Shown piece after piece: positions 16,512 to 38,564 of a DNA stretch of 64,000 bases. Location of the stretch: assembly GCF_003018115.1 (NCBI RefSeq), contig NZ_CP027457.1; one strand, 5' to 3'. Within the stretch, counting starts at the first letter, position 1; every line of letters begins with the position of its first letter. The translations under genes and the position numbers were made by a program. The stretch is from Escherichia coli (GTDB lineage: Bacteria; Pseudomonadota; Gammaproteobacteria; Enterobacterales; Enterobacteriaceae). The notes under the pieces are model-generated. The model ran no database searches and was not told the origin of the DNA. It saw nothing but the letters and a program-made list of their open reading frames with translations.

Positions 16512-19151
16512 ATGCTGGGTAAATATAAAGCCGTTCTCGCGCTGTTATTACTGATTATTCTTGTGCCGTTGACGCTGCTGATGACGCTCGGGCTGTGGGT
16601 TCCCACGCTGGCGGGCATCTGGCTACCGCTCGGGACACGTATTGCATTAGATGAAAGCCCACGCATTACGCGTAAAGGTTTAATCATTCCCGATCTCCGT
16701 TATCTGGTGGGAGATTGTCAGCTTGCGCATATCACCAACGCCAGCCTTTCACATCCCAGCCGCTGGTTATTGAACGTCGGCACGGTAGAACTTGATTCTG
16801 CTTGTCTGGCGAAATTGCCGCAGACGGAGCAATCGCCAGCTGCTCCAAAAACCCTCGCGCAGTGGCAGTCCATGCTGCCTAACACCTGGATCAATATCGA
16901 TAAACTGATTTTTTCTCCCTGGCAGGAATGGCAGGGAAAACTCTCTCTCGCATTAACCTCCGATATCCAGCAACTGCGTTATCAGGGCGAAAAAGTTAAA
17001 TTTCAAGGCCAGCTGAAAGGGCAACAACTTACAGTCAGCGAACTGGATGTCGTCGCGTTTGAAAATCAGCCGCCGGTTAAACTGGTGGGGGAATTTACTA
17101 TGCCGCTAGTGCCGGATGGACTTCCTGTAAGTGGGCATGCTACTGCGACGTTAAACTTGCCGCAGGAACCGTCACTGGTGGATGCAGAGCTGGACTGGCA
17201 GGAAAATAGCGGGCAATTGATCGTGCTGGCACGGGATAACGGCGATCCGTTGCTCGATTTGCCGTGGCAAATTACTCGTCAACAATTGACCGTAAGCGAT
17301 GGTCGCTGGAGCTGGCCGTATGCAGGTTTTCCTTTGAGTGGCCGACTGGGTGTCAAAGTCGACAACTGGCAGGCAGGGCTTGAGAACGCTCTGGTCAGCG
17401 GACGACTGAGTGTGCTGACCCAGGGGCAAGCGGGTAAGGGCAACGCGGTGCTTAATTTTGGCCCAGGAAAATTAAGCATGGATAACAGCCAGCTGCCTCT
17501 GCAGCTGACCGGTGAAGCGAAACAGGCGAACCTCATTTTATATGCCCGTTTACCTGCGCAGCTAAGTGGAAGTCTGTCTGACCCAACGCTGACCTTTGAG
17601 CCAGGCGCGTTACTTCGTTCAAAGGGAAGAGTCATCGATTCGCTGGACATCGATGAAATCCGCTGGCCTTTAGCGGGTGTAAAAGTCACCCAACGTGGTG
17701 TTGACGGACGTTTGCAGGCCATTTTGCAGGCGCATGAAAATGAACTGGGCGATTTCGTGCTGCATATGGATGGGCTGGCGAATGATTTTCTCCCTGACGC
17801 TGGCCGCTGGCAGTGGCGCTACTGGGGAAAAGGGAGTTTTACACCGATGAATGCCACCTGGGATGTCGCAGGAAAAGGTGAGTGGCATGACAGCACGATT
17901 ACGCTGACCGATCTCTCCACCGGTTTCGACCAGTTACAATACGGTACGATGACGGTAGAAAAGCCGCGATTAATTCTCGACAAGCCCGTCGTCTGGGTAC
18001 GTGACGCACAGCATCCCTCCTTCAGCGGCGCGCTGTCACTGGACGCCGGGCAAACGCTGTTCACTGGCGGCAGTGTGTTACCGCCATCAACCTTAAAATT
18101 TAGCGTCGATGGGCGCGATCCGACGTATTTCCTCTTTAAAGGCGATTTACATGCTGGTGAGATTGGCCCGGTTCGGGTAAATGGTCGCTGGGACGGTATT
18201 CGTCTGCGCGGTAATGCCTGGTGGCCTAAACAATCACTGACTGTATTCCAGCCGCTGGTGCCACCCGACTGGAAGATGAACTTACGCGATGGTGAACTGT
18301 ATGCTCAGGTTGCATTTTCTGCTGCGCCTGAACAAGGATTCCGCGCGGGAGGGCACGGCGTGTTGAAAGGCGGTAGTGCCTGGATGCCAGATAATCAGGT
18401 GAACGGTGTCGATTTTGTCCTGCCTTTCCGTTTTGCCGATGGAGCCTGGCATCTGGGGACTCGCGGCCCCGTTACGTTGCGAATTGCCGAAGTGATTAAT
18501 CTGGTGACAGCGAAAAATATTACGGCTGATTTGCAAGGGCGTTATCCGTGGACTGAAGAAGAACCCTTGCTGTTGACTGATGTTAGCGTCGATGTGTTAG
18601 GCGGTAACGTGCTGATGAAACAATTACGTATGCCGCAACATGACCCGGCGCTGTTGCGGCTGAATAATCTCTCATCCAGCGAACTGGTTAGCGCCGTCAA
18701 TCCGAAACAATTCGCCATGTCCGGGGCATTTAGTGGTGCATTGCCGTTATGGCTAAACAACGAAAAATGGATAGTGAAAGATGGTTGGCTGGCAAATAGC
18801 GGGCCAATGACCTTGCGGCTGGATAAAGACACCGCAGATGCGGTGGTGAAAGACAATATGACTGCGGGTTCAGCAATTAACTGGTTGCGCTATATGGAAA
18901 TTAGCCGTTCATCGACAAATATTAATTTAGATAATCTCGGTTTATTAACCATGCAGGCCAACATTACAGGTACCAGTCGCGTTGATGGTAAAAGCGGTAC
19001 GGTAAACCTTAATTACCATCATGAAGAGAATATTTTTACGCTGTGGCGCAGTTTACGCTTTGGCGATAATCTCCAGGCATGGTTGGAGCAGAACGCACGT
19101 CTGCCGGGAAATGACTGTCCGCAAGGAAAAGAGTGTGAGGAAAAACAATGA
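16512..19151 (+). CDS. ydbH: AsmA-like inner-membrane-anchored periplasmic protein YdbH
   Basis: 879-aa ORF with N-terminal TM anchor MLGKYKAVLALLLLIILVPLTLLMTL and long beta-rich body. Confidence 0.9.
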   Translation: MLGKYKAVLALLLLIILVPLTLLMTLGLWVPTLAGIWLPLGTRIALDESPRITRKGLIIPDLRYLVGDCQLAHITNASLSHPSRWLLNVGTVELDSACLAKLPQTEQSPAAPKTLAQWQSMLPNTWINIDKLIFSPWQEWQGKLSLALTSDIQQLRYQGEKVKFQGQLKGQQLTVSELDVVAFENQPPVKLVGEFTMPLVPDGLPVSGHATATLNLPQEPSLVDAELDWQENSGQLIVLARDNGDPLLDLPWQITRQQLTVSDGRWSWPYAGFPLSGRLGVKVDNWQAGLENALVSGRLSVLTQGQAGKGNAVLNFGPGKLSMDNSQLPLQLTGEAKQANLILYARLPAQLSGSLSDPTLTFEPGALLRSKGRVIDSLDIDEIRWPLAGVKVTQRGVDGRLQAILQAHENELGDFVLHMDGLANDFLPDAGRWQWRYWGKGSFTPMNATWDVAGKGEWHDSTITLTDLSTGFDQLQYGTMTVEKPRLILDKPVVWVRDAQHPSFSGALSLDAGQTLFTGGSVLPPSTLKFSVDGRDPTYFLFKGDLHAGEIGPVRVNGRWDGIRLRGNAWWPKQSLTVFQPLVPPDWKMNLRDGELYAQVAFSAAPEQGFRAGGHGVLKGGSAWMPDNQVNGVDFVLPFRFADGAWHLGTRGPVTLRIAEVINLVTAKNITADLQGRYPWTEEEPLLLTDVSVDVLGGNVLMKQLRMPQHDPALLRLNNLSSSELVSAVNPKQFAMSGAFSGALPLWLNNEKWIVKDGWLANSGPMTLRLDKDTADAVVKDNMTAGSAINWLRYMEISRSSTNINLDNLGLLTMQANITGTSRVDGKSGTVNLNYHHEENIFTLWRSLRFGDNLQAWLEQNARLPGNDCPQGKECEEKQ

Positions 19152-19333
19152 AAATTTTACTGGCTGCGTTGACGTCATCTTTTATGCTGGTTGGCTGTAC
19201 GCCTCGCATTGAAGTCGCTGCACCTAAGGAACCGATCACTATCAATATGAACGTTAAAATTGAGCATGAGATCATCATCAAGGCAGACAAAGATGTCGAA
19301 GAGCTGCTTGAAACTCGTAGCGATCTTTTCTGA
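19148..19333 (+). CDS. ynbE: Lipoprotein YnbE
   Basis: 61-aa ORF MKILLAALTSSFMLVGC (lipobox); start overlaps the ydbH stop (ATGA). Confidence 0.85.
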   Translation: MKILLAALTSSFMLVGCTPRIEVAAPKEPITINMNVKIEHEIIIKADKDVEELLETRSDLF

Positions 19334-19340
19334 GGCGATG

Positions 19341-19667
19341 ATGAAGAAAACATTACTTCTTTGTGCGTTTCTTGTTGGGCTGGTAAGCAGCAATGTAATG
19401 GCATTGACTCTGGATGAAGCCAGAACTCAGGGGCGGGTCGGGGAAACATTTTATGGTTATCTGGTTGCGCTGAAAACGGATGCTGAAACAGAGAAATTAG
19501 TAACCGACATTAATGCCGAACGTAAAGCGAGTTACCAACAACTGGCAAAGCAAAATAATGTGTCGGTAGATGATATCGCGAAACTCGCCGGGCAAAAGCT
19601 CGTAGCTCGGGCTAAACCGGGGGAATATGTACAAGGGATAAACGGTAAATGGGTGCGAAAATTTTAA
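19341..19667 (+). CDS. ydbL: Periplasmic DUF1318 protein YdbL
   Basis: 108-aa form MKKTLLLCAFLVGLVSSNVMA (signal peptide), SD GAGG upstream; track ORF has an unlikely upstream extension overlapping ynbE. Confidence 0.8.
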   Translation: MKKTLLLCAFLVGLVSSNVMALTLDEARTQGRVGETFYGYLVALKTDAETEKLVTDINAERKASYQQLAKQNNVSVDDIAKLAGQKLVARAKPGEYVQGINGKWVRKF

Positions 19668-19801
19668 TAGCAAAACCGCACTATCGGGATAACGCTACAG
19701 GAGAAAGCGATTGATCTATTTTCCTGAAACAAGGTGAATATTCAAAAACTCCTGTCAAATTGCCTTTTGCCCTGAAAAATGCATAGTCAAATATCTGTTT
19801 T

Positions 19802-19840
19802 AACTAATTGGCGTTGCAGTACATGCAACGCCAATTAGTT
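19802..19840. terminator. Long perfect palindrome between convergent ydbL and feaR (bidirectional terminator candidate)
   Basis: AACTAATTGGCGTTGC-AGTACAT-GCAACGCCAATTAGTT, 16-nt perfect arms. Confidence 0.6.
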
Positions 19841-20744
19841 AGCGGAATTTACGGCGATACTCGCCAGGCGTCATCCCAAAGCGTTGCTTAAATACCGTTG
19901 AAAAATGACTCTGGTCGGAAAATCCCCAATGAAAGCCAATGCCTGCCAGTTTTTCATCATCTGCGGCATGGCGAATCGCATCTGCACAAAAATCGAGACG
20001 ACGGTTACGAATATATTGCGCGACTACCAAACCTTTATCGGCAAACATTCGGTACAAACTACGTACTGACATACCTGTCTCTCCGGCTATCCACTCCGGG
20101 CGTAATATCTCTTCGCGAATATTATCGTCTATCAACGTAACCACTTTTTGAAACTGACGTTCACGGCGAGGTTGGACAGATTCCCGCTGATGAAGTACTG
20201 GGCGAAGCAGACACACCATCGCCTGTAGCGCAGCTTCACTTTCTGTTTCAGAAAGTGCCGGATTATTCATGCTCTCCTGTAACAGGCGATGACTGAGTTG
20301 CACCATGGGTAAGTCAGCGTCCAGTCTTTCTGCGCAGACAGGTTTTTGATGGGGAAAATATTGTTCCAGCAGAGTGCGTGGCAAAAGTAATGAAATCTGT
20401 TTAGAAGACTCCTGCCAGTAAAGCGAACAGGGGCGTGAGGCATCGAGTAACGTAATATCGCCTGCGCTAATCTGCACCTGACGCTCATCCTGCTCCATTA
20501 TCGCCTGACCACTAAGCTGAAAAACGGTGTAAAACCAGGCATCGTCACTGCCTTTTACCTCCTGCCAGGTGCGGTATAAATTCACTCCGTTGGTTGTCAC
20601 GGTGCTCAGCTTTAGTCCTTTGGCAAAATGCGTGTCCAGTACACCCGTGTAACGCTCAGTCAGCAGGCGTCCGGTAAAATTTCCGCATACCTGATTGATT
20701 TGGGAAAGCCATTGCTGAAACTCATTATCCACTGCGGGGTTCAT
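19839..20744 (-). CDS. feaR: AraC-family activator FeaR of the tynA/feaB genes
   Basis: 301-aa ORF with C-terminal AraC-type HTH (...GFHWGFSDQSHFSTVFKQRFGMTPGEYRRKF). Confidence 0.9.
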   Translation of the reverse strand: MNPAVDNEFQQWLSQINQVCGNFTGRLLTERYTGVLDTHFAKGLKLSTVTTNGVNLYRTWQEVKGSDDAWFYTVFQLSGQAIMEQDERQVQISAGDITLLDASRPCSLYWQESSKQISLLLPRTLLEQYFPHQKPVCAERLDADLPMVQLSHRLLQESMNNPALSETESEAALQAMVCLLRPVLHQRESVQPRRERQFQKVVTLIDDNIREEILRPEWIAGETGMSVRSLYRMFADKGLVVAQYIRNRRLDFCADAIRHAADDEKLAGIGFHWGFSDQSHFSTVFKQRFGMTPGEYRRKFR

Positions 20745-20976
20745 GGCACGTTTTCGCTCTGTGAAATATATTTTTATTGTTGCATTTGTGTTGCAATAAA
20801 CGAAGCTAATGAGCCTGACTATAGGAAATAAGTCTTGTCAGGCATAGAGACATAAGCGGTTATTGTCACGATTTGCGGAGCTTGTCACAGCTGACAAAGC
20901 GAATGTCACAGCGAAAAAAGTGACTTTTCTTGTCGCTGCGTACACTGAAATCACACTGGGTAAATGATAAGGAAAA

Positions 20977-22479
20977 GTGATGACAGAGCCGCATGTAGCA
21001 GTATTAAGCCAGGTCCAACAGTTTCTCGATCGTCAACACGGTCTTTATATTGATGGTCGTCCTGGCCCCGCACAAAGTGAAAAACGATTGGCGATCTTTG
21101 ATCCGGCCACCGGGCAAGAAATTGCGTCTACTGCTGATGCCAACGAAGCGGATGTAGATAACGCAGTCATGTCTGCCTGGCGGGCCTTTGTCTCGCGTCG
21201 CTGGGCCGGGCGATTACCCGCAGAGCGTGAACGTATTCTGCTACGTTTTGCTGATCTGGTGGAGCAGCACAGTGAGGAGCTGGCGCAACTGGAAACCCTG
21301 GAGCAAGGCAAGTCAATTGCCATTTCCCGTGCTTTTGAAGTGGGCTGTACGCTGAACTGGATGCGTTATACCGCCGGGTTAACGACCAAAATCGCGGGTA
21401 AAACGCTGGACTTGTCGATTCCCTTACCCCAGGGGGCGCGTTATCAGGCCTGGACGCGTAAAGAGCCGGTTGGCGTAGTGGCGGGAATTGTGCCATGGAA
21501 CTTTCCGTTGATGATTGGTATGTGGAAGGTGATGCCAGCACTGGCAGCAGGCTGTTCAATCGTGATTAAGCCTTCGGAAACCACGCCACTGACGATGTTG
21601 CGCGTGGCGGAACTGGCCAGCGAGGCTGGTATCCCTGATGGCGTTTTTAATGTGGTCACCGGGTCAGGTGCTGTATGCGGCGCGGCCCTGACGTCACATC
21701 CTCATGTTGCGAAAATCAGTTTTACCGGTTCAACCGCGACGGGAAAAGGTATTGCCAGAACTGCTGCTGATCACTTAACGCGTGTAACGCTGGAACTGGG
21801 CGGTAAAAACCCTGCAATTGTATTAAAAGATGCTGATCCGCAATGGGTTATTGAAGGCTTGATGACCGGAAGCTTCCTGAATCAAGGGCAAGTATGCGCC
21901 GCCAGTTCGCGAATTTATATTGAAGCGCCGTTGTTTGACACGCTGGTTAGTGGATTTGAGCAGGCGGTAAAATCGTTGCAAGTGGGACCGGGGATGTCAC
22001 CTGTTGCACAGATTAACCCTTTGGTTTCTCGTGCGCACTGCGACAAAGTGTGTTCATTCCTCGACGATGCGCAGGCACAGCAAGCAGAGCTGATTCGCGG
22101 GTCGAATGGACCAGCCGGAGAGGGGTATTATGTTGCGCCAACGCTGGTGGTAAATCCCGATGCTAAATTGCGCTTAACTCGTGAAGAGGTGTTTGGTCCG
22201 GTGGTAAACCTGGTGCGAGTAGCGGATGGAGAAGAGGCGTTACAACTGGCAAACGACACGGAATATGGCTTAACTGCCAGTGTCTGGACGCAAAATCTCT
22301 CCCAGGCTCTGGAATATAGCGATCGCTTACAGGCAGGGACGGTGTGGGTAAACAGCCATACCTTAATTGACGCTAACTTACCGTTTGGTGGGATGAAGCA
22401 GTCAGGAACGGGCCGTGATTTTGGCCCCGACTGGCTGGACGGTTGGTGTGAAACTAAGTCGGTGTGTGTACGGTATTAA
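20977..22479 (+). CDS. feaB: Phenylacetaldehyde dehydrogenase
   Basis: About 500-aa aldehyde dehydrogenase; catalytic Cys region GQVCAASSR and ELGGKNP motif. Confidence 0.9.
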
Positions 22480-22496
22480 TCTGGTTCGCTCATAAG

Positions 22497-22527
22497 TAAA
22501 AAACGGCACCTGGTGCCGTTTTTTTGT
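22497..22527. terminator. Bidirectional intrinsic terminator between convergent feaB and tynA
   Basis: AAAACGGCACC-T-GGTGCCGTTTTTTT hairpin with flanking A/T runs. Confidence 0.6.
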
Positions 22528-22536
22528 CTGAAACAA

Positions 22537-24810
22537 TCACTTATCTTTCTTCAGCGCCCCTAGCGTTGGCGTTTCGTCAAAGAAGTTCCATGGTTTAAGC
22601 AGAGTATGTACCCATTCGGTCGGCATAATCGGCCACTCTTCGGCGCGGGCCACATGTGTGGTGCCGGTGGTCATCCAGACAACGGCGTCGGTGTTGTCCA
22701 GCGACTCGTTATCTTTACTGTATTGTCCAAGACCGGTGTCATGATTAGAACGGTTCGGATATTTGCCTTCTGGGAAACGCTCGCCAGGATGATAACGCGT
22801 TACCCAAAGCTGCTTGTCCATAAAGCTTAAACGATGATAGATCCACTCGTCCGGCGCGAACTGGGCACCTTTTGCTACCGGGTGAGTACCACCTGCATAA
22901 GGAATAATTTGATAGGAAACTGGATTGCCCATGCGGTTCTCTTTGTTCGGGTTACTCAACAGACGAATCGTGCCCGGATCAAACTTCTGCGCGGCATCCT
23001 GTTCATTGCCGATGTTGTACTGATTAACTTGCATGGTACTGGTGCGTGGGCCACCGGCAGTATTCGGTTTTACCACCGGGTCCATCGCCACCAGGCTGTT
23101 ATTCTCGCCATCTACATCCAGATCGAGGCGGAAATTATAAATATGTTGGTGTGTAGTACCCACTATATTGTGATCGATAAGCGTGCCGTAGCGCGTGTCA
23201 TCTTTCGCCGTCTCATCGTGCATGGTTTTCGCTTTAACACCTTTCACCGCTTCGATGCCCGTAGCACCGGCATCAATGCCAATAGTGCCGTTTTCATGGA
23301 AGATCCAGTCAAAAATGTAGTCATAGTTACCCACTGTACTGATCCAGCGCACCACTAACTCCCGGCGTTCGGTACTGACGTTGGGCTGGCCCATTTCCTG
23401 ATGCTTATACTCAGGCCCGGCATAACGTTCAAATACCGCGATAGCACGAGGGATCTCCATCGGTACGCCAGTGTAGTCGGCGATGGTTTCATTCAGGAGC
23501 ACTGCGTTAGAGGGTGCATCTTTGCCACGTGCAATTGGCGAGGTTAGCGTGCCCATACCGTAGTCACCAGAGTCCAGATACGCTTTAAAGTACCAGCCAA
23601 TATCAGGATCACCGTAAGGCACAATCATGCCGCCGAGAGAACCTTCGTACATGACTTTGCGTTTGGTGCCATTGTCGTTATAAGTCACGGTGGAGATCAT
23701 CGGCCCGACGCGAGAGTTCATGCTGAGGTGAAAATCCCAGTTACGCCAGTGAATCATATCGCCAGTAATGGTGTAATTTTTACCTTCAGGCTCGATGATT
23801 TGCATAGGTTTAACTGCCGGAGCAACGCGGTCACGGCCATCAAATGGACGTGCGGTCATTGGCACCGGAACTACCGGACCTTCTTCAATCTTAACGATTT
23901 TTTTCTGTTCTAAATCAACGACCGCCACCAGGTTTTCGATGGGATGTGCCCAGTAGTTGCCATCACCGACATCAAGATAGCTGATGACTTTGAGCAACCG
24001 GGCATCTTGTTTCAGGCCATCTTTACCATCGAAATAACCTACGGTCAGCGGCGTGGTAATCACTTTCTTCGCATCAGTAATACCGCGCTTCTTCACGGCA
24101 GCGGTAAATTCTTCACTGTTGTTAATAATGTTCTGCACACTGGCGAAATCATCCAGCAACACCATTCCGTGGGCGTCTTTAATGGGTTGCCAGGAGAGCA
24201 ATTTGTTGTTTTGCAGATCCACCACCGCTTCGATGATATGTTTGCCGTCGAGCATAATGACGTCGGCTTTGCGTGGCTGCTCAACCGGTTTGTTTTCCAG
24301 CGCAAACGCCCAGACAGCTTCTTTATCTGGCGGTAGCAGGGAGATCTCAGTAAAACGGGTATTGGGTTTGAAGTCCGCGGAAGCTTTAACAATTTCAACG
24401 GCCTGTTTAATTTCGTCCGCAGTTAGCGCATTAAGTGGGTGAGGGCGCTTTTCTACCTGAAAGGTTTGATCCAGCCCGGACTGGAAAACATCGTTAATAA
24501 AGGTGTCAGAAACCCAGGCTTTATTGTCTTTCATCACTACCGGCACTTGCAGTGCCAGAGGCTGACCATTAACAATTGCTGTTTGCGCACCAGGCTTCAC
24601 TTTCACGTACGCGCCATCTTTAATCAGGGTAAAGAGCTGGGCGTAGTCGTCCCACTGCACATCGGCACCAAATTCTTTAAGCGTTTTATCCATTGGCACC
24701 ATATGCGCTTCGCCCCCGTGGGCAAATACTGGTGCTTGCCAGGCGAAACTTAAGGCGACTGCCAACGCCAGGGTTGTTTTACGGGCAGAATACAGAGAGG
24801 GGCTTCCCAT
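22537..24810 (-). CDS. tynA: Periplasmic copper/topaquinone amine oxidase (phenylethylamine oxidase)
   Basis: 757-aa form starting MGSPSLYSARKTTLALAVALSFAWQAPVFA (signal peptide); track ORF is 12 codons longer. Confidence 0.9.
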   Translation of the reverse strand: MGSPSLYSARKTTLALAVALSFAWQAPVFAHGGEAHMVPMDKTLKEFGADVQWDDYAQLFTLIKDGAYVKVKPGAQTAIVNGQPLALQVPVVMKDNKAWVSDTFINDVFQSGLDQTFQVEKRPHPLNALTADEIKQAVEIVKASADFKPNTRFTEISLLPPDKEAVWAFALENKPVEQPRKADVIMLDGKHIIEAVVDLQNNKLLSWQPIKDAHGMVLLDDFASVQNIINNSEEFTAAVKKRGITDAKKVITTPLTVGYFDGKDGLKQDARLLKVISYLDVGDGNYWAHPIENLVAVVDLEQKKIVKIEEGPVVPVPMTARPFDGRDRVAPAVKPMQIIEPEGKNYTITGDMIHWRNWDFHLSMNSRVGPMISTVTYNDNGTKRKVMYEGSLGGMIVPYGDPDIGWYFKAYLDSGDYGMGTLTSPIARGKDAPSNAVLLNETIADYTGVPMEIPRAIAVFERYAGPEYKHQEMGQPNVSTERRELVVRWISTVGNYDYIFDWIFHENGTIGIDAGATGIEAVKGVKAKTMHDETAKDDTRYGTLIDHNIVGTTHQHIYNFRLDLDVDGENNSLVAMDPVVKPNTAGGPRTSTMQVNQYNIGNEQDAAQKFDPGTIRLLSNPNKENRMGNPVSYQIIPYAGGTHPVAKGAQFAPDEWIYHRLSFMDKQLWVTRYHPGERFPEGKYPNRSNHDTGLGQYSKDNESLDNTDAVVWMTTGTTHVARAEEWPIMPTEWVHTLLKPWNFFDETPTLGALKKDK

Positions 24811-25057
24811 TATTAACCTCGTCAGATGTTGTGTTCTTGTTAGCAACCGCGCTCTGTGGGCGGTTTAGTCAGGTTCACATTATCAGTACTGATGTAAAGG
24901 GGATTGCCTGCACCTGCCAGGTTGTTTGGCAGGTGTGCCAGCTTTTCATACAGTGGGTGCCCTGAAAATACAGATACACATCATGCATAACGTGACAACG
25001 TCACAAAATTTGGTGAAATAAAAGGGCAACTATTCGCCGTTGCCCTTCATTCACCGA

Positions 25058-27103
25058 TTAATCGACAAAATCACCGTGCTGCCTGGCCACCAGCGTCAGA
25101 ATTGAATACAGCGCCACCGGGGTTTGATGCTGATTGAATACCTCTACCGCCCATTCCACCACACCTGTTGGTTTTTCTTCTGCGCTACGCTGTTTTTTCA
25201 GCGTCTTGCGCTTACAGGTGAGACGCACCTGGATGGTATCGCCTGGTTTTACTGGCTCGATAAAACGCAAGTTTTCCAGCCCGTAGTTAGCAATGACCGG
25301 ACCAACTCCGGCATCGACAAACAGACCCGCAGCCGCAGAAAGCACAAAATACCCATGCACCACACGCTCACCGAAAATAGATTCGGCAGCAGCAATCTTA
25401 TCCATATGCGCATAGAAATGATCGCCGCTGAGGCAAGCAAAGTTAACAATATCGGCCTCTGTCATTGTGCGGCGGGGAGTCAGCAGGCTGTCGCCTGGTT
25501 GCAGCTCCTCAAAATATTTGCGGAACGGATGAATACGATCTTCTTCGACTTTCGCACCACGCACCCACTGTTTACTGATAGCGGCAAGCATCGACGGACT
25601 ACCCTGTACAGCGGTTCGCTGCATGTAATGTTTTACCGCTCGTAAACCACCTAATTCTTCACCGCCTCCTGCGCGACCAGGCCCACCATGTACCAGTTGT
25701 GGCAGTGGGGAGCCATGCCCGGTGGATTCTTTTGCCGACTCTTCATTGAGGATCTGAATTCGCCCATGCGTACGCGCCGCGTCGGCAATAAACTGACGCG
25801 CAATTTGCGGATCAGCCGTCACCAGCGTTCCCGCAAGACTACCGCCACCTGCACAAGCCAGTTGCAGAGCATGTTGCTGGTTTTGTGCAGGCATCAGCGT
25901 TGCGACAGGGCCAAAGGCTTCTGTTGCATGTACCGCCGGTGTTTCATCCGGCTGCGGACAGTACAATAAGGTTGGCGGGAAGAAGGCACCCGCAGCAGAT
26001 AAATCCGCCTGACCACCGAGGCGAATCTCGCATCCTGCAGCCAGCAATATGTTCACTTTTTCCTGCACATCGGCACGCTGCTCAGCATTTACCAGTGCGC
26101 CCATTTTCACGCCTTCCTGAGCAGGATCACCGACCACGACTTTCTGTAATCGCGCAACCAGAGCATCACTGACAGCATTAACCAATGCCTGCGGCACAAT
26201 AATCCGCCGGATTGCCGTACATTTTTGCCCGGCTTTTGTGGTCATCTCACGCACAATTTCACGAATAAACAGCGCAAACTCCGGTTGATCCGGGGTGACA
26301 TCTTCGCCCAGTACGCAGCAGTTCAGGGAATCAGCTTCCATAGTGAAGGGGATAGATTTGGCGACGATATTTGGCTGAACTCGCAGCATCTGTCCGGTCG
26401 CCGCTGACCCCGTGAAAGTCACCACATCCTGGCTGTCCAGATGATCCAACAAGTCGCCAGCACTACCGCAGATCAGACTAATTGCGCCTTCGGGAACAAG
26501 ACCACTATCGACAATTGATTTCACCATCGCCTGAGTCAGTTGGGCCGTCGCGGTAGCTGGTTTGATGATGGCTGGCATTCCGCCCAGCCACGTTGGTGCC
26601 AGCTTTTCCAGCATTCCCCAGCAGGGGAAGTTAAAGGCGTTAATATGCACTGCCACGCCTGACTTTGAGGTCAGTACATGGCGCGCGGCAAATCCACCTT
26701 CTTTCGATAAGGGGATCAATTCATCTTCCGGCCACAGCGTATCGTCAGGCAGCTCCCGGCTACCGAGGCTGGCGTAAGTAAATAACGTCCCAATGCCACC
26801 TTCAATATCAACCCAACTGTCTGCCCGCGTTGCGCCTGTTTGCGCAGAAAGAGCATAGAAGCGCTCTTTTTCACTCAGCAGATGTTTAGCGACCGCTTTA
26901 AGCATCGCCGCACGTTCGATAAAGGTCATCGCGCGGAGGGCGGGGGCACCTTTTTCAATGGCAAACTGGCGGGCAGCCGCCATATCAAGACCTTCACTGG
27001 TCACTTCCCATAACGCCTCGCCGCTAATAGCGTGATGAATCAAACGGCTACGGCCCCGGCCAGACTGCCAGGTACCGGATAAGAAACTGGCTAACTGCTG
27101 CAT
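25058..27103 (-). CDS. paaZ: Bifunctional oxepin-CoA hydrolase / 3-oxo-5,6-dehydrosuberyl-CoA semialdehyde dehydrogenase
   Basis: 681-aa ORF; N-terminal aldehyde dehydrogenase domain plus C-terminal MaoC-like hydratase domain. Confidence 0.9.
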
Positions 27104-27117
27104 CGCTACTCTCCAGA

Positions 27118-27157
27118 TGTTTCACATTTCTGTTGCTAATAGTTAAATCACGAATCA
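27118..27157. promoter_or_regulatory. Candidate PaaX operator in the paaZ promoter (TGTTTC-N28-GAATCA)
   Basis: Imperfect match to the PaaX operator pattern TGATTC-N27-GAATCA (from memory), just upstream of the paaZ start. Confidence 0.4.
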
Positions 27158-27335
27158 TAAAAAGCAAGGCGTATTTTAACGAAATGTTAACTGCGCGATC
27201 TGTATATCAACTACTAAAAACATTAATACACTGATAAATAATGAGTTATAAAAATAGGGTGCGAAATCCGTCACAGTTCAAACATACAAAACTTGTGATT
27301 TCAGTTAACCATTGTGTAACTTTCATAAAACAACG

Positions 27336-27374
27336 TGATTCGTGTTTTTAATTAATTCACGAAAACTGGAATCG
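27336..27374. promoter_or_regulatory. Candidate PaaX operator in the paaA promoter (TGATTC-N27-GAATCG)
   Basis: TGATTCGTG...N27...GAATCG with the expected 27-nt spacing, 14-50 nt upstream of the paaA start. Confidence 0.45.
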
Positions 27375-27387
27375 TAAAGGTGATGAC

Positions 27388-28317
27388 GTGACCCAAGAAG
27401 AACGCTTTGAGCAACGGATAGCCCAGGAAACGGCTATCGAGCCGCAGGACTGGATGCCCGATGCTTACCGAAAGACACTGATCCGCCAGATTGGGCAGCA
27501 TGCGCACTCCGAGATTGTTGGTATGTTGCCTGAAGGTAACTGGATCACTCGTGCACCAACCTTGCGGCGTAAAGCCATTCTGTTGGCCAAAGTGCAGGAT
27601 GAAGCCGGTCATGGTCTGTATCTCTATAGCGCCGCCGAAACACTGGGCTGCGCCAGAGAAGACATCTACCAAAAAATGCTCGACGGACGGATGAAATATT
27701 CCTCCATCTTTAATTATCCGACATTGAGTTGGGCTGATATCGGTGTTATCGGCTGGCTGGTGGATGGCGCAGCGATCGTCAATCAGGTGGCGTTATGCCG
27801 CACTTCTTATGGCCCGTATGCCAGAGCAATGGTGAAAATCTGCAAAGAAGAGAGTTTTCACCAGCGTCAGGGGTTTGAAGCCTGCATGGCACTGGCGCAG
27901 GGCAGCAAAGCTCAAAAGCAGATGTTGCAAGACGCCATTAACCGTTTCTGGTGGCCAGCCTTAATGATGTTCGGGCCAAACGATGATAACTCGCCAAACA
28001 GCGCCAGAAGTCTCGCCTGGAAAATCAAACGTTTCACCAACGACGAACTCCGCCAGCGTTTCGTGGACAACACCGTTCCACAGGTTGAAATGCTCGGTAT
28101 GACCGTTCCTGACCCGGATCTGCATTTTGACACTGAAAGCGGTCACTACCGCTTTGGTGAGATCGACTGGCAGGAGTTTAACGAAGTAATTAACGGTCGC
28201 GGAATTTGTAATCAGGAGAGGCTCGACGCCAAACGTAAAGCCTGGGAAGAAGGTACCTGGGTACGGGAAGCAGCGCTGGCCCATGCACAAAAACAACATG
28301 CCCGTAAGGTCGCATAA
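27388..28317 (+). CDS. paaA: 1,2-phenylacetyl-CoA epoxidase subunit A
   Basis: 309-aa [17 protein letters not shown]...; di-iron oxygenase family; first gene of the paa operon. Confidence 0.9.
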
Positions 28318-28328
28318 GGAGATTCAAA

Positions 28329-28616
28329 ATGAGTAATGTTTACTGGCCGTTATACGAAGTTTTCGTGCGTGGCAAACAGGGCTTATCACACCGCCATGTT
28401 GGCAGTTTACATGCTGCCGATGAGCGGATGGCACTGGAAAATGCCCGTGATGCTTACACCCGTCGTAGCGAAGGATGTTCAATTTGGGTGGTGAAGGCGA
28501 GTGAAATTGTTGCCTCGCAACCGGAAGAACGCGGTGAATTTTTTGATCCGGCTGAAAGCAAGGTCTATCGCCATCCAACGTTTTACACCATCCCTGATGG
28601 CATTGAGCACATGTGA
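28329..28616 (+). CDS. paaB: 1,2-phenylacetyl-CoA epoxidase subunit B
   Basis: 95-aa ORF MSNVYWPLYEVFVRGKQGLSHRHVGSLHAAD... Confidence 0.9.
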   Translation: MSNVYWPLYEVFVRGKQGLSHRHVGSLHAADERMALENARDAYTRRSEGCSIWVVKASEIVASQPEERGEFFDPAESKVYRHPTFYTIPDGIEHM

Positions 28617-28624
28617 GGTCGGAA

Positions 28625-29371
28625 ATGAATCAGTTAACGGCTTACACCTTGCGCCTGGGCGATAACTGTCTGGTGCTCTCCCAGCGGTTGGGGGAATGGT
28701 GCGGTCACGCACCGGAACTGGAAATCGATCTCGCACTGGCAAACATTGGCCTCGATTTATTAGGTCAGGCACGTAACTTCTTATCGTATGCCGCTGAATT
28801 AGCGGGAGAAGGTGATGAAGATACCCTGGCCTTCACCCGAGACGAGCGCCAGTTCAGCAACTTATTGTTGGTTGAACAACCAAACGGCAATTTTGCCGAC
28901 ACCATTGTACGCCAGTATTTCATCGATGCATGGCATGTGGCGCTCTTTACCCGTCTGATGGAAAGCCGCGAGCCGCAACTGGCGGCGATTTCTGCCAAAG
29001 CAATTAAAGAAGCGCGTTATCACCTGCGTTTTAGTCGTGGTTGGCTGGAGCGACTGGGCAATGGTACTGACGTATCAGGGCAAAAGATGCAGCAGGCCAT
29101 CGACAAGTTGTGGCGTTTTACCGCCGAACTGTTCGATGCCGACGAGATTGATATTGCACTGAGTGAAGAGGGTATTGCGGTTGATCCACGCACTTTACGC
29201 GCAGCGTGGGAAGCCGAAGTTTTTGCCGGAATCAACGAAGCCACATTGAACGTACCGCAAGAGCAGGCGTATCGCACTGGCGGTAAAAAAGGACTGCATA
29301 CCGAACACCTTGGACCCATGCTGGCAGAAATGCAGTATCTCCAGCGTGTCTTGCCCGGTCAGCAATGGTAA
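28625..29371 (+). CDS. paaC: 1,2-phenylacetyl-CoA epoxidase subunit C
   Basis: 248-aa form starting MNQLTAYTLRLGDNCLVLSQRLGEW; track ORF is 4 codons longer. Confidence 0.9.
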   Translation: MNQLTAYTLRLGDNCLVLSQRLGEWCGHAPELEIDLALANIGLDLLGQARNFLSYAAELAGEGDEDTLAFTRDERQFSNLLLVEQPNGNFADTIVRQYFIDAWHVALFTRLMESREPQLAAISAKAIKEARYHLRFSRGWLERLGNGTDVSGQKMQQAIDKLWRFTAELFDADEIDIALSEEGIAVDPRTLRAAWEAEVFAGINEATLNVPQEQAYRTGGKKGLHTEHLGPMLAEMQYLQRVLPGQQW

Positions 29372-29385
29372 CAGAGGAGATGGGT

Positions 29386-29883
29386 ATGCAACGTCTGGCC
29401 ACCATTGCACCGCCACAGGTTCATGAGATATGGGCGCTACTCAGCCAGATCCCGGACCCGGAGATCCCGGTGCTGACCATTACCGATTTAGGCATGGTGC
29501 GTAATGTGACACAGATGGGAGAAGGATGGGTGATCGGCTTTACGCCGACTTATTCCGGTTGTCCGGCAACGGAACATTTGATTGGCGCGATACGTGAGGC
29601 AATGACAACCCACGGGTTTACCCCCGTTCAGGTTGTGCTGCAACTCGACCCGGCATGGACCACCGACTGGATGACCCCCGATGCCCGTGAGCGTCTGCGA
29701 CAGTATGGAATTAGCCCGCCCGCCGGACACAGTTGCCATGCCCATTTGCCGCCAGAAGTACGTTGCCCGCGTTGCGCCAGCGTCCATACCACACGTATCA
29801 GTGAATTTGGTTCCACGGCCTGCAAAGCATTGTATCGCTGCGATAGTTGCCGCGAACCTTTCGATTATTTCAAATGTATTTGA
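29386..29883 (+). CDS. paaD: Phenylacetate degradation protein PaaD (epoxidase maturation factor)
   Basis: 165-aa form starting MQRLATIAPPQVHEIWALL; C-terminal Cys cluster CPRCASVHT...CDSC. Confidence 0.85.
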   Translation: MQRLATIAPPQVHEIWALLSQIPDPEIPVLTITDLGMVRNVTQMGEGWVIGFTPTYSGCPATEHLIGAIREAMTTHGFTPVQVVLQLDPAWTTDWMTPDARERLRQYGISPPAGHSCHAHLPPEVRCPRCASVHTTRISEFGSTACKALYRCDSCREPFDYFKCI

Positions 29884-29890
29884 GGATGCC

Positions 29891-30961
29891 ATGACAACGT
29901 TTCATTCCTTAACGGTGGCAAAAGTGGAGCCGGAAACCCGTGATGCGGTGACCATTACCTTTGCGGTGCCCCAGCCTTTGCAGGAGGCGTATCGCTTTCG
30001 CCCTGGTCAACATTTGACCTTAAAAGCCAGCTTTGATGGTGAAGAATTACGCCGTTGTTACTCCATTTGCCGCAGCTACCTGCCTGGCGAAATTAGTGTG
30101 GCGGTGAAAGCCATTGAAGGCGGACGTTTCTCCCGCTATGCCCGCGAACACATCCGCCAGGGTATGACGCTGGAAGTCATGGTGCCGCAGGGGCATTTCG
30201 GCTATCAGCCGCAGGCCGAACGTCAGGGCCGCTATCTGGCAATTGCAGCAGGATCAGGTATTACGCCAATGCTGGCGATTATCGCCACCACTTTACAAAC
30301 CGAGTCTGAAAGTCAGTTCACCCTGATCTACGGTAACCGTACCAGCCAGAGCATGATGTTTCGCCAGGCACTGGCAGACCTGAAAGACAAATATCCTCAG
30401 CGTTTACAGTTGTTGTGCATTTTCAGTCAGGAAACTCTCGACAGCGATCTGCTTCACGGGCGTATTGACGGTGAAAAATTACAGTCACTTGGGGCCTCGC
30501 TCATTAATTTTCGTCTTTATGATGAAGCGTTTATTTGTGGTCCGGCGGTGATGATGGATGACGCGGAAACCGCCTTAAAAGCACTGGGAATGCCAGAAAA
30601 AGCGATTCATCTGGAGCGGTTTAATACGCCTGGCACGCGCGTCAAACGTAGCGTTAACGTGCAAAGTGACGGACAAAAAGTGACTGTACGTCAGGATGGG
30701 CGGGATCGGGAAATCGTGCTTAATGCCGACGATGAAAGCATTCTCGATGCGGCATTGCGCCAGGGGGCGGATCTGCCCTATGCCTGCAAAGGCGGCGTCT
30801 GTGCGACCTGCAAATGCAAAGTGCTGCGTGGCAAAGTGGCGATGGAAACCAATTACAGTCTGGAACCGGATGAACTGGCCGCAGGCTATGTGTTGAGTTG
30901 CCAGGCACTGCCGCTGACCAGCGATGTGGTGGTTGACTTTGACGCGAAGGGGATGGCATGA
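29891..30961 (+). CDS. paaE: 1,2-phenylacetyl-CoA epoxidase reductase subunit (FAD/NAD, 2Fe-2S ferredoxin)
   Basis: 356-aa form starting MTTFHSLTVAKVEPE; C-terminal plant-type ferredoxin Cys motif CKGGVCATCKC. Confidence 0.9.
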   Translation: MTTFHSLTVAKVEPETRDAVTITFAVPQPLQEAYRFRPGQHLTLKASFDGEELRRCYSICRSYLPGEISVAVKAIEGGRFSRYAREHIRQGMTLEVMVPQGHFGYQPQAERQGRYLAIAAGSGITPMLAIIATTLQTESESQFTLIYGNRTSQSMMFRQALADLKDKYPQRLQLLCIFSQETLDSDLLHGRIDGEKLQSLGASLINFRLYDEAFICGPAVMMDDAETALKALGMPEKAIHLERFNTPGTRVKRSVNVQSDGQKVTVRQDGRDREIVLNADDESILDAALRQGADLPYACKGGVCATCKCKVLRGKVAMETNYSLEPDELAAGYVLSCQALPLTSDVVVDFDAKGMA

Positions 30962-31725
30962 GCGAACTGATCGTCAGCCGTCAGCAACGAGTATTGTTGC
31001 TGACCCTTAACCGTCCCGCCGCACGTAATGCGCTGAATAATGCCCTGCTGACGCAACTGGTAAATGAGCTGGAAGCTGCGGCTATCGATACCAGCATTTC
31101 GGTCTGTGTGATTACCGGTAATGCACGCTTTTTTGCCGCCGGTGCCGATCTCAACGAAATGGCAGAAAAAGATCTCGCGGCCACCTTAAACGATACACGT
31201 CCGCAGCTATGGGCGCGATTGCAGGCCTTTAACAAACCACTCATCGCAGCCGTCAATGGTTACGCGCTTGGTGCAGGTTGCGAACTGGCATTGTTGTGCG
31301 ATGTGGTGGTTGCCGGAGAGAACGCGCGTTTTGGGTTGCCGGAAATCACTCTCGGCATCATGCCAGGCGCAGGCGGAACGCAACGTTTAATCCGTAGTGT
31401 TGGCAAATCGTTAGCCAGCAAAATGGTGCTGAGCGGAGAAAGTATCACCGCCCAGCAAGCGCAGCAGGCCGGGCTGGTTAGCGACGTCTTCCCCAGCGAT
31501 TTAACCCTCGAATACGCCTTACAGCTGGCATCGAAAATGGCACGTCACTCGCCGCTGGCCTTACAAGCGGCAAAGCAAGCGCTGCGCCAGTCGCAGGAAG
31601 TGGCTTTGCAAGCCGGACTTGCCCAGGAGCGGCAGTTATTCACCTTGCTGGCGGCAACAGAAGATCGTCATGAAGGCATCTCCGCTTTCTTACAAAAACG
31701 CACGCCCGACTTTAAAGGACGCTAA
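30958..31725 (+). CDS. paaF: 2,3-dehydroadipyl-CoA hydratase (crotonase family)
   Basis: 255-aa enoyl-CoA hydratase fold; start overlaps paaE stop. Confidence 0.9.
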   Translation: MSELIVSRQQRVLLLTLNRPAARNALNNALLTQLVNELEAAAIDTSISVCVITGNARFFAAGADLNEMAEKDLAATLNDTRPQLWARLQAFNKPLIAAVNGYALGAGCELALLCDVVVAGENARFGLPEITLGIMPGAGGTQRLIRSVGKSLASKMVLSGESITAQQAQQAGLVSDVFPSDLTLEYALQLASKMARHSPLALQAAKQALRQSQEVALQAGLAQERQLFTLLAATEDRHEGISAFLQKRTPDFKGR

Positions 31726-32513
31726 TGATGGAATTCATCCTCAGTCATGTAGAAAAGGGCGTGATGACACTAACGCTCAACCGCCCGGAACGCCTGAACA
31801 GTTTTAATGATGAGATGCATGCACAACTGGCAGAGTGCCTGAAACAGGTCGAGCGCGACGACACTATCCGTTGCCTGTTAATTACAGGTGCCGGACGTGG
31901 ATTTTGTGCTGGTCAGGATCTTAACGATCGTAATGTTGATCCCACAGGCCCCGCACCGGATTTAGGGATGTCAGTGGAGCGTTTCTATAACCCGCTGGTA
32001 CGTCGCTTGGCAAAACTGCCAAAACCGGTGATCTGTGCAGTCAATGGCGTGGCGGCAGGGGCTGGCGCAACACTGGCACTGGGTTGCGACATCGTTATTG
32101 CTGCCCGTTCAGCAAAATTCGTCATGGCTTTTAGTAAGTTAGGCTTAGTACCCGATTGCGGTGGAACCTGGTTACTGCCACGCGTTGCTGGGCGAGCGCG
32201 CGCCATGGGGCTGGCACTGCTGGGGAATCAACTGAGTGCTGAACAGGCGCACGAATGGGGGATGATCTGGCAGGTTGTTGATGATGAAACGCTGGCAGAT
32301 ACCGCGCAACAGCTGGCGCGGCATCTGGCGACACAACCGACATTTGGTCTTGGACTTATCAAGCAAGCGATAAATAGCGCTGAAACCAATACGCTTGATA
32401 CGCAACTGGATCTGGAACGCGACTATCAGCGACTTGCCGGACGGAGCGCAGATTATCGTGAAGGTGTCAGTGCGTTCCTGGCTAAACGCTCACCGCAGTT
32501 CACGGGGAAATAG
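31725..32513 (+). CDS. paaG: 1,2-epoxyphenylacetyl-CoA isomerase (crotonase family)
   Basis: 262-aa crotonase-fold ORF; start overlaps paaF stop. Confidence 0.9.
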   Translation: MMEFILSHVEKGVMTLTLNRPERLNSFNDEMHAQLAECLKQVERDDTIRCLLITGAGRGFCAGQDLNDRNVDPTGPAPDLGMSVERFYNPLVRRLAKLPKPVICAVNGVAAGAGATLALGCDIVIAARSAKFVMAFSKLGLVPDCGGTWLLPRVAGRARAMGLALLGNQLSAEQAHEWGMIWQVVDDETLADTAQQLARHLATQPTFGLGLIKQAINSAETNTLDTQLDLERDYQRLAGRSADYREGVSAFLAKRSPQFTGK

Positions 32514-32514
32514 C

Positions 32515-33942
32515 ATGATGATAAATGTGCAAACTGTGGCAGTGATTGGGAGCGGCACCATGGGGGCAGGCATTGCTGAAGTTGCTGCCAGTCATGGACA
32601 CCAGGTTTTACTGTATGACATTTCTGCTGAAGCGCTGACCCGCGCAATCGACGGGATACACGCGCGGCTAAATTCACGCGTGACGCGGGGAAAACTGACT
32701 GCTGAAACCTGTGAACGCACATTGAAACGCCTGATCCCGGTGACCGATATTCACGCGCTGGCAGCTGCGAATCTGGTTATTGAAGCGGCGTCTGAACGTC
32801 TGGAAGTCAAAAAAGCGCTCTTTGCACAGCTGGCGGAAGTTTGCCCGCCACAAACGCTATTGACCACTAACACTTCGTCAATCTCTATAACCGCGATTGC
32901 TGCGGAGGTAAAAAATCCTGAACGTGTTGCGGGGCTGCATTTTTTTAACCCGGCACCGGTGATGAAGTTGGTGGAGGTGGTCAGTGGGCTGGCAACGGCA
33001 GCGGAAGTTGTTGAGCAGTTGTGTGAACTGACATTGAGTTGGGGTAAGCAGCCTGTGCGCTGTCATTCGACTCCTGGATTTATCGTTAACCGTGTTGCGC
33101 GTCCTTATTATTCCGAGGCCTGGCGGGCACTGGAAGAGCAGGTTGCTACACCAGAAGTGATTGACGCTGCACTTCGCGATGGCGCTGGTTTCCCGATGGG
33201 GCCGCTGGAATTAACCGATCTGATTGGTCAGGACGTCAATTTTGCTGTCACCTGTTCGGTGTTTAACGCTTTCTGGCAGGAGCGTCGTTTTTTACCTTCG
33301 CTGGTGCAACAGGAACTGGTGATTGGTGGACGGTTGGGCAAGAAAAGTGGGCTGGGCGTGTACGACTGGCGCGCGGAACGTGAGGCAGTTGTTGGCCTGG
33401 AAGCGGTAAGCGACAGTTTTAGCCCAATGAAAGTAGAAAAGAAAAGTGACGGTGTCACAGAAATTGACGATGTTTTATTGATTGAGACACAAGGCGAGAC
33501 GGCACAGGCGCTGGCAATACGACTGGCACGCCCGGTGGTAGTAGTCGACAAAATGGCGGGCAAGGTGGTGACCATTGCTGCGGCAGCGGTGAACCCGGAC
33601 TCAGCGACCCGCAAGGCCATTTATTACCTGCAACAGCAGGGCAAAACAGTGCTGCAAATTGCAGATTACCCAGGAATGCTGATTTGGCGAACGGTAGCAA
33701 TGATCATCAATGAAGCCCTTGATGCGCTGCAAAAAGGCGTGGCCTCTGAACAGGATATCGATACCGCCATGCGTCTTGGGGTGAATTATCCATATGGCCC
33801 GCTTGCCTGGGGAGCGCAACTTGGCTGGCAGCGAATATTAAGGCTCCTGGAAAATCTACAACATCACTATGGCGAAGAACGCTATCGCCCATGTTCATTG
33901 CTGCGCCAACGGGCGCTTCTGGAGAGCGGTTATGAGTCATAA
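32515..33942 (+). CDS. paaH: 3-hydroxyadipyl-CoA dehydrogenase
   Basis: 475-aa form starting MMINVQTVAVIGSGTMGAGIA (Rossmann GxGxxG); track ORF extends 40 codons upstream into paaG. Confidence 0.9.
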   Translation: MMINVQTVAVIGSGTMGAGIAEVAASHGHQVLLYDISAEALTRAIDGIHARLNSRVTRGKLTAETCERTLKRLIPVTDIHALAAANLVIEAASERLEVKKALFAQLAEVCPPQTLLTTNTSSISITAIAAEVKNPERVAGLHFFNPAPVMKLVEVVSGLATAAEVVEQLCELTLSWGKQPVRCHSTPGFIVNRVARPYYSEAWRALEEQVATPEVIDAALRDGAGFPMGPLELTDLIGQDVNFAVTCSVFNAFWQERRFLPSLVQQELVIGGRLGKKSGLGVYDWRAEREAVVGLEAVSDSFSPMKVEKKSDGVTEIDDVLLIETQGETAQALAIRLARPVVVVDKMAGKVVTIAAAAVNPDSATRKAIYYLQQQGKTVLQIADYPGMLIWRTVAMIINEALDALQKGVASEQDIDTAMRLGVNYPYGPLAWGAQLGWQRILRLLENLQHHYGEERYRPCSLLRQRALLESGYES

Positions 33943-34354
33943 GGCCTGGCAAAATGCCCATGCAATGTATGAGAACGATGCCTGCGCCAAAGCGCTTGGC
34001 ATCGACATTATCTCAATGGATGAAGGCTTTGCTGTAGTGACCATGACCGTCACTGCACAAATGCTTAATGGTCATCAAAGTTGCCACGGCGGGCAGCTAT
34101 TTTCACTGGCTGATACTGCCTTTGCCTACGCCTGCAATAGCCAGGGGCTGGCAGCCGTCGCTTCTGCCTGCACGATTGATTTTTTGCGTCCAGGCTTTGC
34201 CGGAGACACCTTAACTGCTACTGCGCAGGTACGTCATCAGGGCAAGCAAACCGGTGTTTACGACATCGAAATTGTTAACCAACAACAAAAAACGGTTGCG
34301 CTGTTTCGCGGTAAATCTCACCGCATCGGCGGCACCATTACAGGAGAAGCCTGA
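33932..34354 (+). CDS. paaI: Hotdog-fold acyl-CoA thioesterase PaaI
   Basis: 140-aa form starting MSHKAWQNAHAMYEND; overlaps the paaH 3' end by about 11 nt. Confidence 0.85.
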   Translation: MSHKAWQNAHAMYENDACAKALGIDIISMDEGFAVVTMTVTAQMLNGHQSCHGGQLFSLADTAFAYACNSQGLAAVASACTIDFLRPGFAGDTLTATAQVRHQGKQTGVYDIEIVNQQQKTVALFRGKSHRIGGTITGEA

Positions 34355-35559: not shown

Positions 35560-35585
35560 GCATATCAACCTGCGAGTACCCTACA

Positions 35586-38522: not shown

Positions 38523-38564
38523 CGTCCAGATACTGAACATTCTAATTTTTAGCATGTGATCCCT

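Follow-up and report, generated by a model that had tools for sequence, protein, structure and literature searches.

The genes ydbL and feaR of Escherichia coli converge on a short spacer that carries a long DNA palindrome, and the question is what such an element does at the 3' ends of two opposed transcription units and how it came to be there. It was studied in a window of 64 kb, the whole stretch of DNA that was analysed, whose closest complete genome is that of strain 33F4 and whose identity to K-12 is 98.3%. Past feaR, which converges on ydbL, the gene order continues with feaB (+) and then tynA (-). A preliminary description, made from the letters alone, had placed a perfect palindrome with 16-nt arms and a 7-nt loop here, overlapping the feaR stop codon. 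The palindrome is real and lies where it was placed, and the overlap with the stop codon was borne out, while the arms proved to be 18 nt each (100% complementary) and the loop 5 nt. The features of the junction are collected in Table 1.

Table 1. Features of the ydbL/feaR junction, in window coordinates.
Feature	Position	Strand	Description
ydbH	16512-19151	+	Followed by ynbE and ydbL
ydbL	19341..19667	+	Last gene of ydbH-ynbE-ydbL; its transcripts cross the dyad
orfX-loss junction	19663..19682		Apparent loss of ~330 bp; YdbL C-terminus changes from ...VRK-stop to ...VRKF-stop
orfX remnant	19683..19727	+	Last 14 codons and stop (IGITLQEKAIDLFS-stop) of a 101-aa Rhs-immunity-like gene
orfX 3' region	19728..19800	+	73 nt from remnant stop to dyad; common to E. 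coli and the E. fergusonii-labelled contig L143, missing from Rhs-locus copies
Dyad left arm	19801..19818		TAACTAATTGGCGTTGCA; 5' arm in + sense RNA, 3' arm in feaR-sense RNA
GC-rich 9-bp core stem	19810..19832		GGCGTTGCA / TGCAACGCC; dG ~-15 kcal/mol; outer 9 bp AT-rich
Covarying pair	19810 with 19832		G:C, C:G, A:T, also G.G
Dyad loop	19819..19823		GTACA; T at 19818 widens it to 7 nt
Dyad right arm	19824..19841		TGCAACGCCAATTAGTTA
feaR stop codon TAA	19839..19841	-	Outermost 3 bp of dyad right arm
feaR	19839..20744	-	AraC-family activator of tynA and feaB; the dyad is the first structure 3' of its CDS
Rho-region peak (MG1655 1446501)	19962	+	121 nt downstream of dyad; K-12 alignment gap-free

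No other perfect close-spaced inverted repeat in the whole window is as long as the dyad, and by our own arithmetic a perfect hairpin with 18-nt arms is expected by chance about 1e-5 times per 64 kb. Its RNA alone has a fold energy of about -27 kcal/mol, and in an 81-nt context it folds at -29 kcal/mol in the - sense and -35 kcal/mol in the + sense (z = -6.2 and -7.3, respectively), with none of 200 shuffles equally stable. RefSeq annotates nothing at the corresponding position of MG1655. A genome search for other copies of the arm sequence, recommended beforehand as a check, returned one locus per genome across 5,426 complete E. coli genomes, and no further copies of the arms were found within the 64-kb window or elsewhere in those genomes. 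The two places per genome given by the arm search itself probably reflect the palindrome matching itself on both strands, since asymmetric alleles give only one. An Rfam scan at E <= 10 assigned the dyad to no family, the microRNA-type hairpin matches being far below their gathering scores and meaningless. Plasmids, phages and viral contigs yielded no relatives, the matches, where there were any, being chromosomal E. coli records under a wrong label, and the literature on the arm sequence consists of unrelated PCR primers.

A promoter and terminator scan of positions 19200-20900 found no terminator-like site and no convincing promoter in the spacer. On the + strand, Adams et al. 2021 (PMC7815308, Supplementary file 2) list MG1655 1446501, a position antisense to feaR, as a Rho termination region with a Rho score of 4.03. 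Upstream and downstream reads at this position were 54 and 14 in untreated cells, and 87 and 91 with bicyclomycin. Since the reads downstream match those upstream once Rho is inhibited, there is little Rho-independent termination of the + strand at the dyad. Transcripts of the + strand cross the dyad and are then stopped by Rho, with no residual drop once Rho is blocked. In the curated Term-seq tables of the same study no 3' end is called at 14461xx-14464xx, coverage there being low and feaR uninduced in the media used. Downstream of the dyad, C-rich and G-poor stretches occur on both strands, with a C/G ratio of up to 2.3. Rho-dependent transcripts have been described to end just past stable stem-loops without U-rich tails, which protect them against PNPase and RNase II and have rut sites just downstream (Dar & Sorek 2018, PMC6061677). 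The dyad is likewise a stable stem-loop that no U-rich sequence follows; when this class is applied to the feaR-sense transcript, Rho dependence is putative.

The reading that we prefer, held at slightly less than even confidence, is that the dyad, as a stem-loop in RNA without a U-tract, keeps 3' exonucleases off two converging, Rho-terminated transcripts. The stem-loop would be common to the ydbH-ynbE-ydbL (+) and feaR (-) units, both apparently without an intrinsic terminator, since a perfect palindrome in DNA gives the same hairpin in both converging RNAs. RNA polymerase would pass the dyad and be halted by Rho further on; the published data show this for the + strand about 120 nt downstream, in antisense feaR. 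Then 3'-to-5' exonucleases would presumably trim the RNA back to the 18-bp hairpin, which would both set and protect the mature 3' end. Two features of the published data count against this exonuclease-blocking stem-loop: the peak of the Rho region is 121 nt off and not at the hairpin, and the curated Term-seq tables (PMC7815308) contain no mapped RNA 3' end at the dyad.

The origin of the dyad was approached through the spacer in which it lies. On an E. fergusonii-labelled contig (L143), ydbL is followed by 70 nt, an intact 101-aa open reading frame (orfX, +, L143 2381-2686), 73 nt, the dyad and feaR. The C-terminus of this orfX is IGITLQEKAINLFS before the stop, where the window reads IGITLQEKAIDLFS before the stop, and no more than the last ~60 nt of orfX are left in any of the 5,426 complete E. 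coli genomes. The remnant is unannotated in MG1655. YdbL ends in ...RK in L143, in Pseudocitrobacter and in the divergent Escherichia lineage L010, and in ...RKF in E. coli; the left edge of the orfX loss falls in the ydbL stop, and the extra Phe of E. coli comes from the junction. That these relatives end in ...RK suggests a derivation of the E. coli form by deletion.

Pfam holds no family for orfX. A homolog that is 63% identical (P0242) occurs on 221 contigs, where it starts 17 nt downstream of a full-length PAAR-Rhs toxin (1376 aa) and ahead of orphan Rhs-CT fragments, and is thus a small ORF directly after an Rhs C-terminal toxin domain, the arrangement of Rhs-associated immunity genes. 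Another homolog (53%) lies in a small-gene array beside DUF4274 genes. As judged from the 63% homolog, the remnant appears to be that of an orphan Rhs-type putative immunity gene. At the DNA level, orfX and the Rhs-locus copy are homologous as far as the stop codon and not beyond, and neither the Rhs-locus copy nor the third homolog has an inverted repeat after it, so that the dyad is not a feature of the orfX family; the idea of the hairpin as a part of the orfX cassette was rejected on these grounds. A small RNA in the spacer was rejected as well. A second predicted stem at 19697-19755 (ACAGGAG / CTCCTGT around an inner hairpin), which overlaps the orfX remnant, is probably not functional, since B2 alleles break it (T19750G) without compensation. 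The small ORFs of the spacer are just 21-27 aa long and have no support.

Related genera show the junction in a simpler form. In Raoultella, Pluralibacter and two species of Pseudocitrobacter, the synteny of ydbH-ynbE-ydbL with feaR-feaB is kept and the stops of ydbL and feaR abut (...TGA TTA...), with neither spacer nor hairpin. The feaR stop is TGA in the lineages without the dyad and TAA where the dyad is present. Escherichia albertii, E. marmotae and E. ruysiae have neither feaR nor the dyad, and their homology to the window stops at 19662, at the ydbL stop; two divergent ydbL types labelled E. coli also lack feaR, and there homology stops at 19652. In all of these feaR-less lineages ydbL is followed by pdxI or by a ydbA-like autotransporter. 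In lineage L010, feaR is present and encodes the same C-terminus; it has a TGA stop, followed by an unrelated 73-bp spacer and no dyad. The homology of this lineage to the window breaks off precisely at 19843, in the last sense codon of feaR, and its type of spacer was found in no complete E. coli genome. Since lineages exist that carry feaR without the dyad, the dyad is dispensable. On the genomes compared, it is confined to the fea module of E. coli and E. fergusonii and is lineage-specific.

Taken from these comparisons, the dyad is the distal edge of what appears to be a segment inserted between ydbL and feaR, and as such provides the new stop codon of feaR. It would have arrived in a segment of about 0.5 kb together with the orphan Rhs-type immunity gene, placed stop-to-stop between the two genes, and would not have evolved in place from a terminator. 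Most of orfX would later have been deleted in E. coli, leaving its last 14 codons, the 3' region and the dyad.

The junction is also a boundary of the fea module, as the preliminary description had proposed; the ends of homology at 19662 in the sister species and at 19843 in L010 agree with it. Identity of L143 to the window is 97.4% on the fea side (19682-21350) and 85.7% on the ydbH-ydbL side (17347-19662), and that of L010 is 94.4% (19843-23743) and 87.3% (16877-19662), respectively. Such a sharp asymmetry at the junction indicates that the fea module was exchanged horizontally or that ydbH-ynbE-ydbL evolved unusually fast. It implies that the module has probably moved between Escherichia lineages, with its left boundary in the ydbL-feaR spacer. 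In YdbL itself, variation among genomes labelled E. coli is unusually high, with types at 99%, 88%, 85% and ~77% identity, each on many contigs.

Within E. coli, the dyad is present in approximately 4,195 of the 5,426 complete genomes. Around 500 genomes, or ~10% of those that keep ydbL, lack it through deletions of the fea/paa block or IS1 events, and this loss together with the block counts against a role as an exonuclease-blocking stem-loop. In ETEC1706 (6069-6135 of its contig L002) the spacer is cut at ~19731, a few bases past the stop of the orfX remnant (TTTTCCTGAAAC), and joined to the interior of ydbA; the deletion class seen in this strain is recurrent, with roughly 500 genomes matching the ydbL side only, and there is no IS at the junction. 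In strains of the B2/ST131 type (L004, U12A, 3240-3818), only the last 252 bp of feaR are left, fused to what remains of paaY. This fusion joins window position 20090 to 38182, and the 5' part of feaR, feaB, tynA and paaZ through paaX are gone. The dyad is kept in the B2 strains despite the truncated feaR. That it appears to have outlasted both this truncation and the deletion of the adjoining gene argues for the exonuclease-blocking stem-loop.

Allelic variation was examined in 129 copies of the dyad, from 120 metagenome loci together with genome loci. The dyad is 41 nt long in all 129 sequences and occurs as six alleles. The perfect 18-bp stem (allele 1) was found 42 times. Allele 2 (n = 39) carries TG>CA at 19824-25, which gives two G.U pairs in the feaR sense and two mismatches in the + sense, and allele 6 (n = 1) adds C19812T to it. 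Allele 3 (n = 28), which is the allele of L143, has C19810:G19832 and T19818; allele 4 (n = 16) has G.G at 19810/19832; and allele 5 (n = 3) has A19810:T19832 and T19818. Every allele retains at least 16 Watson-Crick pairs. The pair 10:32 (19810/19832) is found in three Watson-Crick states, G:C, C:G and A:T, 14 of the 18 pairs are invariant, and 93.5% of the cells are paired. No indels were found in the dyad among the 129 sequences, whereas the adjoining spacer contains them.

Two statistics count against the exonuclease-blocking stem-loop. The covariation score was equalled or exceeded by 30 of 500 shuffles and, with six distinct rows and one covarying pair, is suggestive only. Nucleotide diversity (pi) is 0.050 in the dyad, 0.038 in the spacer and 0.023 in ydbL, and is therefore not below that of the flanks; as diversity is not reduced and pairing is kept, it is pairing rather than sequence that persists. 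In favour of the stem-loop, the predicted stem is kept in all six alleles, and the TG>CA allele keeps its two G.U pairs in the feaR sense. As to the strand of action, the wobble pairs divide, with one common allele favouring the feaR sense and one singleton the + sense. As the haplotypes are mosaic, recombination may have produced the G.G allele. The comparison of the site across strains, also recommended beforehand, has two sides: the stem is kept in every allele and sequence, and the element is lineage-specific, absent from related genera and sister species.

Hairpin-templated strand switching (quasipalindrome correction) is a known mutational mechanism in E. coli, and the allele pattern fits it as well as it fits selection on the hairpin. 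The dyad could then be a neutral relic without a present function, the outer end of the cassette that was inserted, whether as a junction scar or as the former 3' hairpin of the cassette; its near-perfect stem would be due to its youth and to strand switching copying changes between the arms. We regard this as possible and somewhat less likely than the stem-loop. The repeated complementary changes at a single pair and the stem-extending T18>A are what templated correction is expected to leave, and recombination between mosaic haplotypes can also make the G.G allele. The dyad sits in the decaying orfX remnant, its diversity is at least that of the flanks, it has been lost in many strains and is missing from other feaR-bearing lineages, and no 3' end is mapped at it. 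A relic is harder to reconcile with 129 sequences that hold no indel and at most two unpaired positions in the dyad beside a spacer that has indels, with survival of the deletion of the neighbouring gene, and with the lack of any other 3' structure with a U-tract at either convergent gene.

The dyad may instead be a weak bidirectional intrinsic terminator, in which the 9-bp GC core forms the hairpin, with degenerate A- and U-tracts in the outer arms (UAACUAAUU / AAUUAGUUA). This is improbable. The position between convergent genes would suit it, and the architecture is that of the terminator 2.7 kb away between the convergent feaB and tynA, a textbook bidirectional intrinsic terminator at 22498-22524 (AAAAAACGGCACC-G-GGTGCCGTTTTTT) that served as an internal control. 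The GC-rich stem-loop of a canonical terminator is also present, a 9-bp core within the 18-bp stem, with dG from -15 kcal/mol for the core to -27 kcal/mol. There is, however, no U-rich tract directly 3' of the stem. With U-tract weighting after d'Aubenton-Carafa, the tail score of the full stem was 0.11 in the + sense and 0.06 in the - sense, with 1-2 U in the first 8 nt. When the core alone was taken as the stem and the outer AT-rich arm as the tail, the score was 0.8 in either sense; of the 8 nt in this tail (AAUUAGUU), 4 are U, one fewer than the scan requires, and the two bases next to the stem are A. The control terminator scored 5.09 and 4.63, and the paaY terminator 3.55. The flanks (TAACTAATT / AATTAGTTA) are not homopolymeric and do not form the A-tract and U-tract of a bidirectional terminator. 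The published data add the match of downstream to upstream + strand reads under Rho inhibition, and the lack of a Rho-independent 3' end or of any Term-seq call at the dyad, at low coverage and with feaR uninduced. The remark in the preliminary description that the dyad is longer and more perfect than typical terminators and lacks a U-run is in line with these scores and with the empty scan.

The paaY terminator (AAACCGCAAC...GTTGCGGTTT followed by TTATTATT) lies in the gap between paaY and pdxI (window 38523-38764), where this strain is without ydbA. A short REP-like fragment, GCCGGATGCGGTG, was noted at ~38602 within the same gap.

That the palindrome might be a protein-binding dyad had been raised at the outset, which would make it an operator for a dimeric DNA-binding protein acting on feaR, on the ydbH operon or on the structure of the local chromosome. 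The perfect two-fold symmetry would suit such a site, and the changes at 19810/19832 keep the half-sites symmetric. We consider it very improbable: half-sites of 18 bp far exceed known operators in length, both genes have it at their 3' ends, not where it would be relevant to a promoter, conservation is no higher than in the flanks, and an allele found in ~30% of the sequences breaks the central symmetry. The site is also absent from other feaR-bearing lineages, and the arm sequence has no relevant literature. FeaR recognizes the motif TGNCA-N8-AAA; compared by eye, the dyad fitted neither this motif nor those of sigma-54, PdhR/LldR, SlmA or IHF.

There is hardly more reason to see a DNA-level recombination element, whether this is a hotspot formed by a cruciform, a cassette site of the attC type, or the terminus of an island or mobile element. 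The dyad does lie at the edge of a horizontally exchanged block and adjoins a promoterless, orphan, cassette-like gene, its outer AAC...GTT recalls the R''/R' boxes of attC, and one IS1 junction falls exactly at the stem-loop border. Yet it is single-copy in the 5,426 E. coli genomes, has no plasmid, phage or viral relatives, is absent beside other members of the orfX family, and has no adjacent integrase or transposase. It has no extrahelical bases, its 41 bp are below the size range of attC, and its R''/R' matches are 6/7 and 5/7. The 19-kb block (19663 to ~38712) has no partner repeat at its far junction. A role of the dyad as an island-bounding repeat was rejected, the left and right junctions (19640-19880 and 38480-38800) having only chance 8-mers in common, and there is no sign of the dyad mediating the movement of the fea module.

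Three different IS1 junctions were observed within ~210 bp around the ydbL stop, the dyad and the 3' end of feaR. That of ETEC1739 (L007, ~5019-5026) is at the border of stem and loop (19818/19819), with a deletion through to pdxI; that of ETEC1716 (L008, 4073-4125) is inside the 3' end of feaR, at ~19872; and that of GmM062 (L003, ~6063-6120) is at the ydbL stop, ~19662, with a deletion through to azoR. At most 4 of ~4,200 genomes have the one at the border of stem and loop, and support for the recombination-prone cruciform suggested earlier is anecdotal. A further reading, to which we give scant credence, is that the dyad is no RNA element at all but a hairpin in DNA by which a single cassette with an immunity gene entered stop-to-stop between abutting convergent genes; if true, it would mark, outside integrons and Rhs loci, an attC-like or fold-back mode of recombination for the orphan immunity cassettes of polymorphic toxins, and template switching would later have kept it perfect.

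Most likely, the dyad is an ordinary kind of element, a U-less 3' stem-loop where two Rho-terminated units converge, with an unexpected origin beside an Rhs-type immunity remnant. One unannotated 3' stem-loop would thus be added to the K-12 map (MG1655 1446340-1446380), and it would account for the missing recognizable terminators at ydbL and feaR. Beyond the preliminary description, the spacer is seen as a decayed gene remnant and the dyad as limited to the fea module of E. coli and E. fergusonii; a seemingly featureless K-12 spacer would be the tail of a lost Rhs-type immunity gene. Movement of the fea module with its spacer between Escherichia lineages would help to account for the recurrent loss and gain of the fea/paa block. 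The locus also offers a clean natural test of the hairpin-trimming idea, since one palindrome would serve both transcripts and the alleles supply one-sided, compensated and wobble variants.

Among known systems, integron attC sites resemble the dyad in being a hairpin 3' of a small promoterless accessory gene, with outer AAC...GTT, from which the dyad differs in its perfection, its 41 bp without extrahelical bases, the lack of an integrase, its single copy and its absence beside homologous cassettes. REP/BIME elements are stabilizers of mRNA 3' ends that can block 3' exonucleases. Like them, the dyad is extragenic, hairpin-forming, free of a U-tract and located at gene 3' ends; unlike them, it has no REP consensus and no Rfam family, occurs once per genome rather than in hundreds of copies, and has a perfect instead of an imperfect stem. 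With quasipalindrome template-switch hotspots it shares the mirroring of a change in one arm by the other, as seen in the three complementary states and the one-sided state of pair 10:32, although at the dyad this pattern could also come from allelic recombination or from selection for pairing in the RNA. Bidirectional terminators such as that of feaB/tynA are also palindromes between convergent genes that give the same hairpin in both transcripts, and the dyad has their GC-rich core and AT-rich outer arms; its arms, however, are of mixed A/T (tail score 0.8 against 4.6-5.1), and the bicyclomycin data indicate read-through. From the protective stem-loops of Dar & Sorek 2018, the dyad differs in having no mapped steady-state 3' end, in its unusual length and perfection (18 bp), in being a DNA palindrome that serves two converging units and overlaps a stop codon, and in having apparently come with foreign DNA in a single lineage. 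It resembles them in being stable and U-less at genes without an intrinsic terminator, with Rho termination documented downstream on the + strand and with C-rich stretches downstream.
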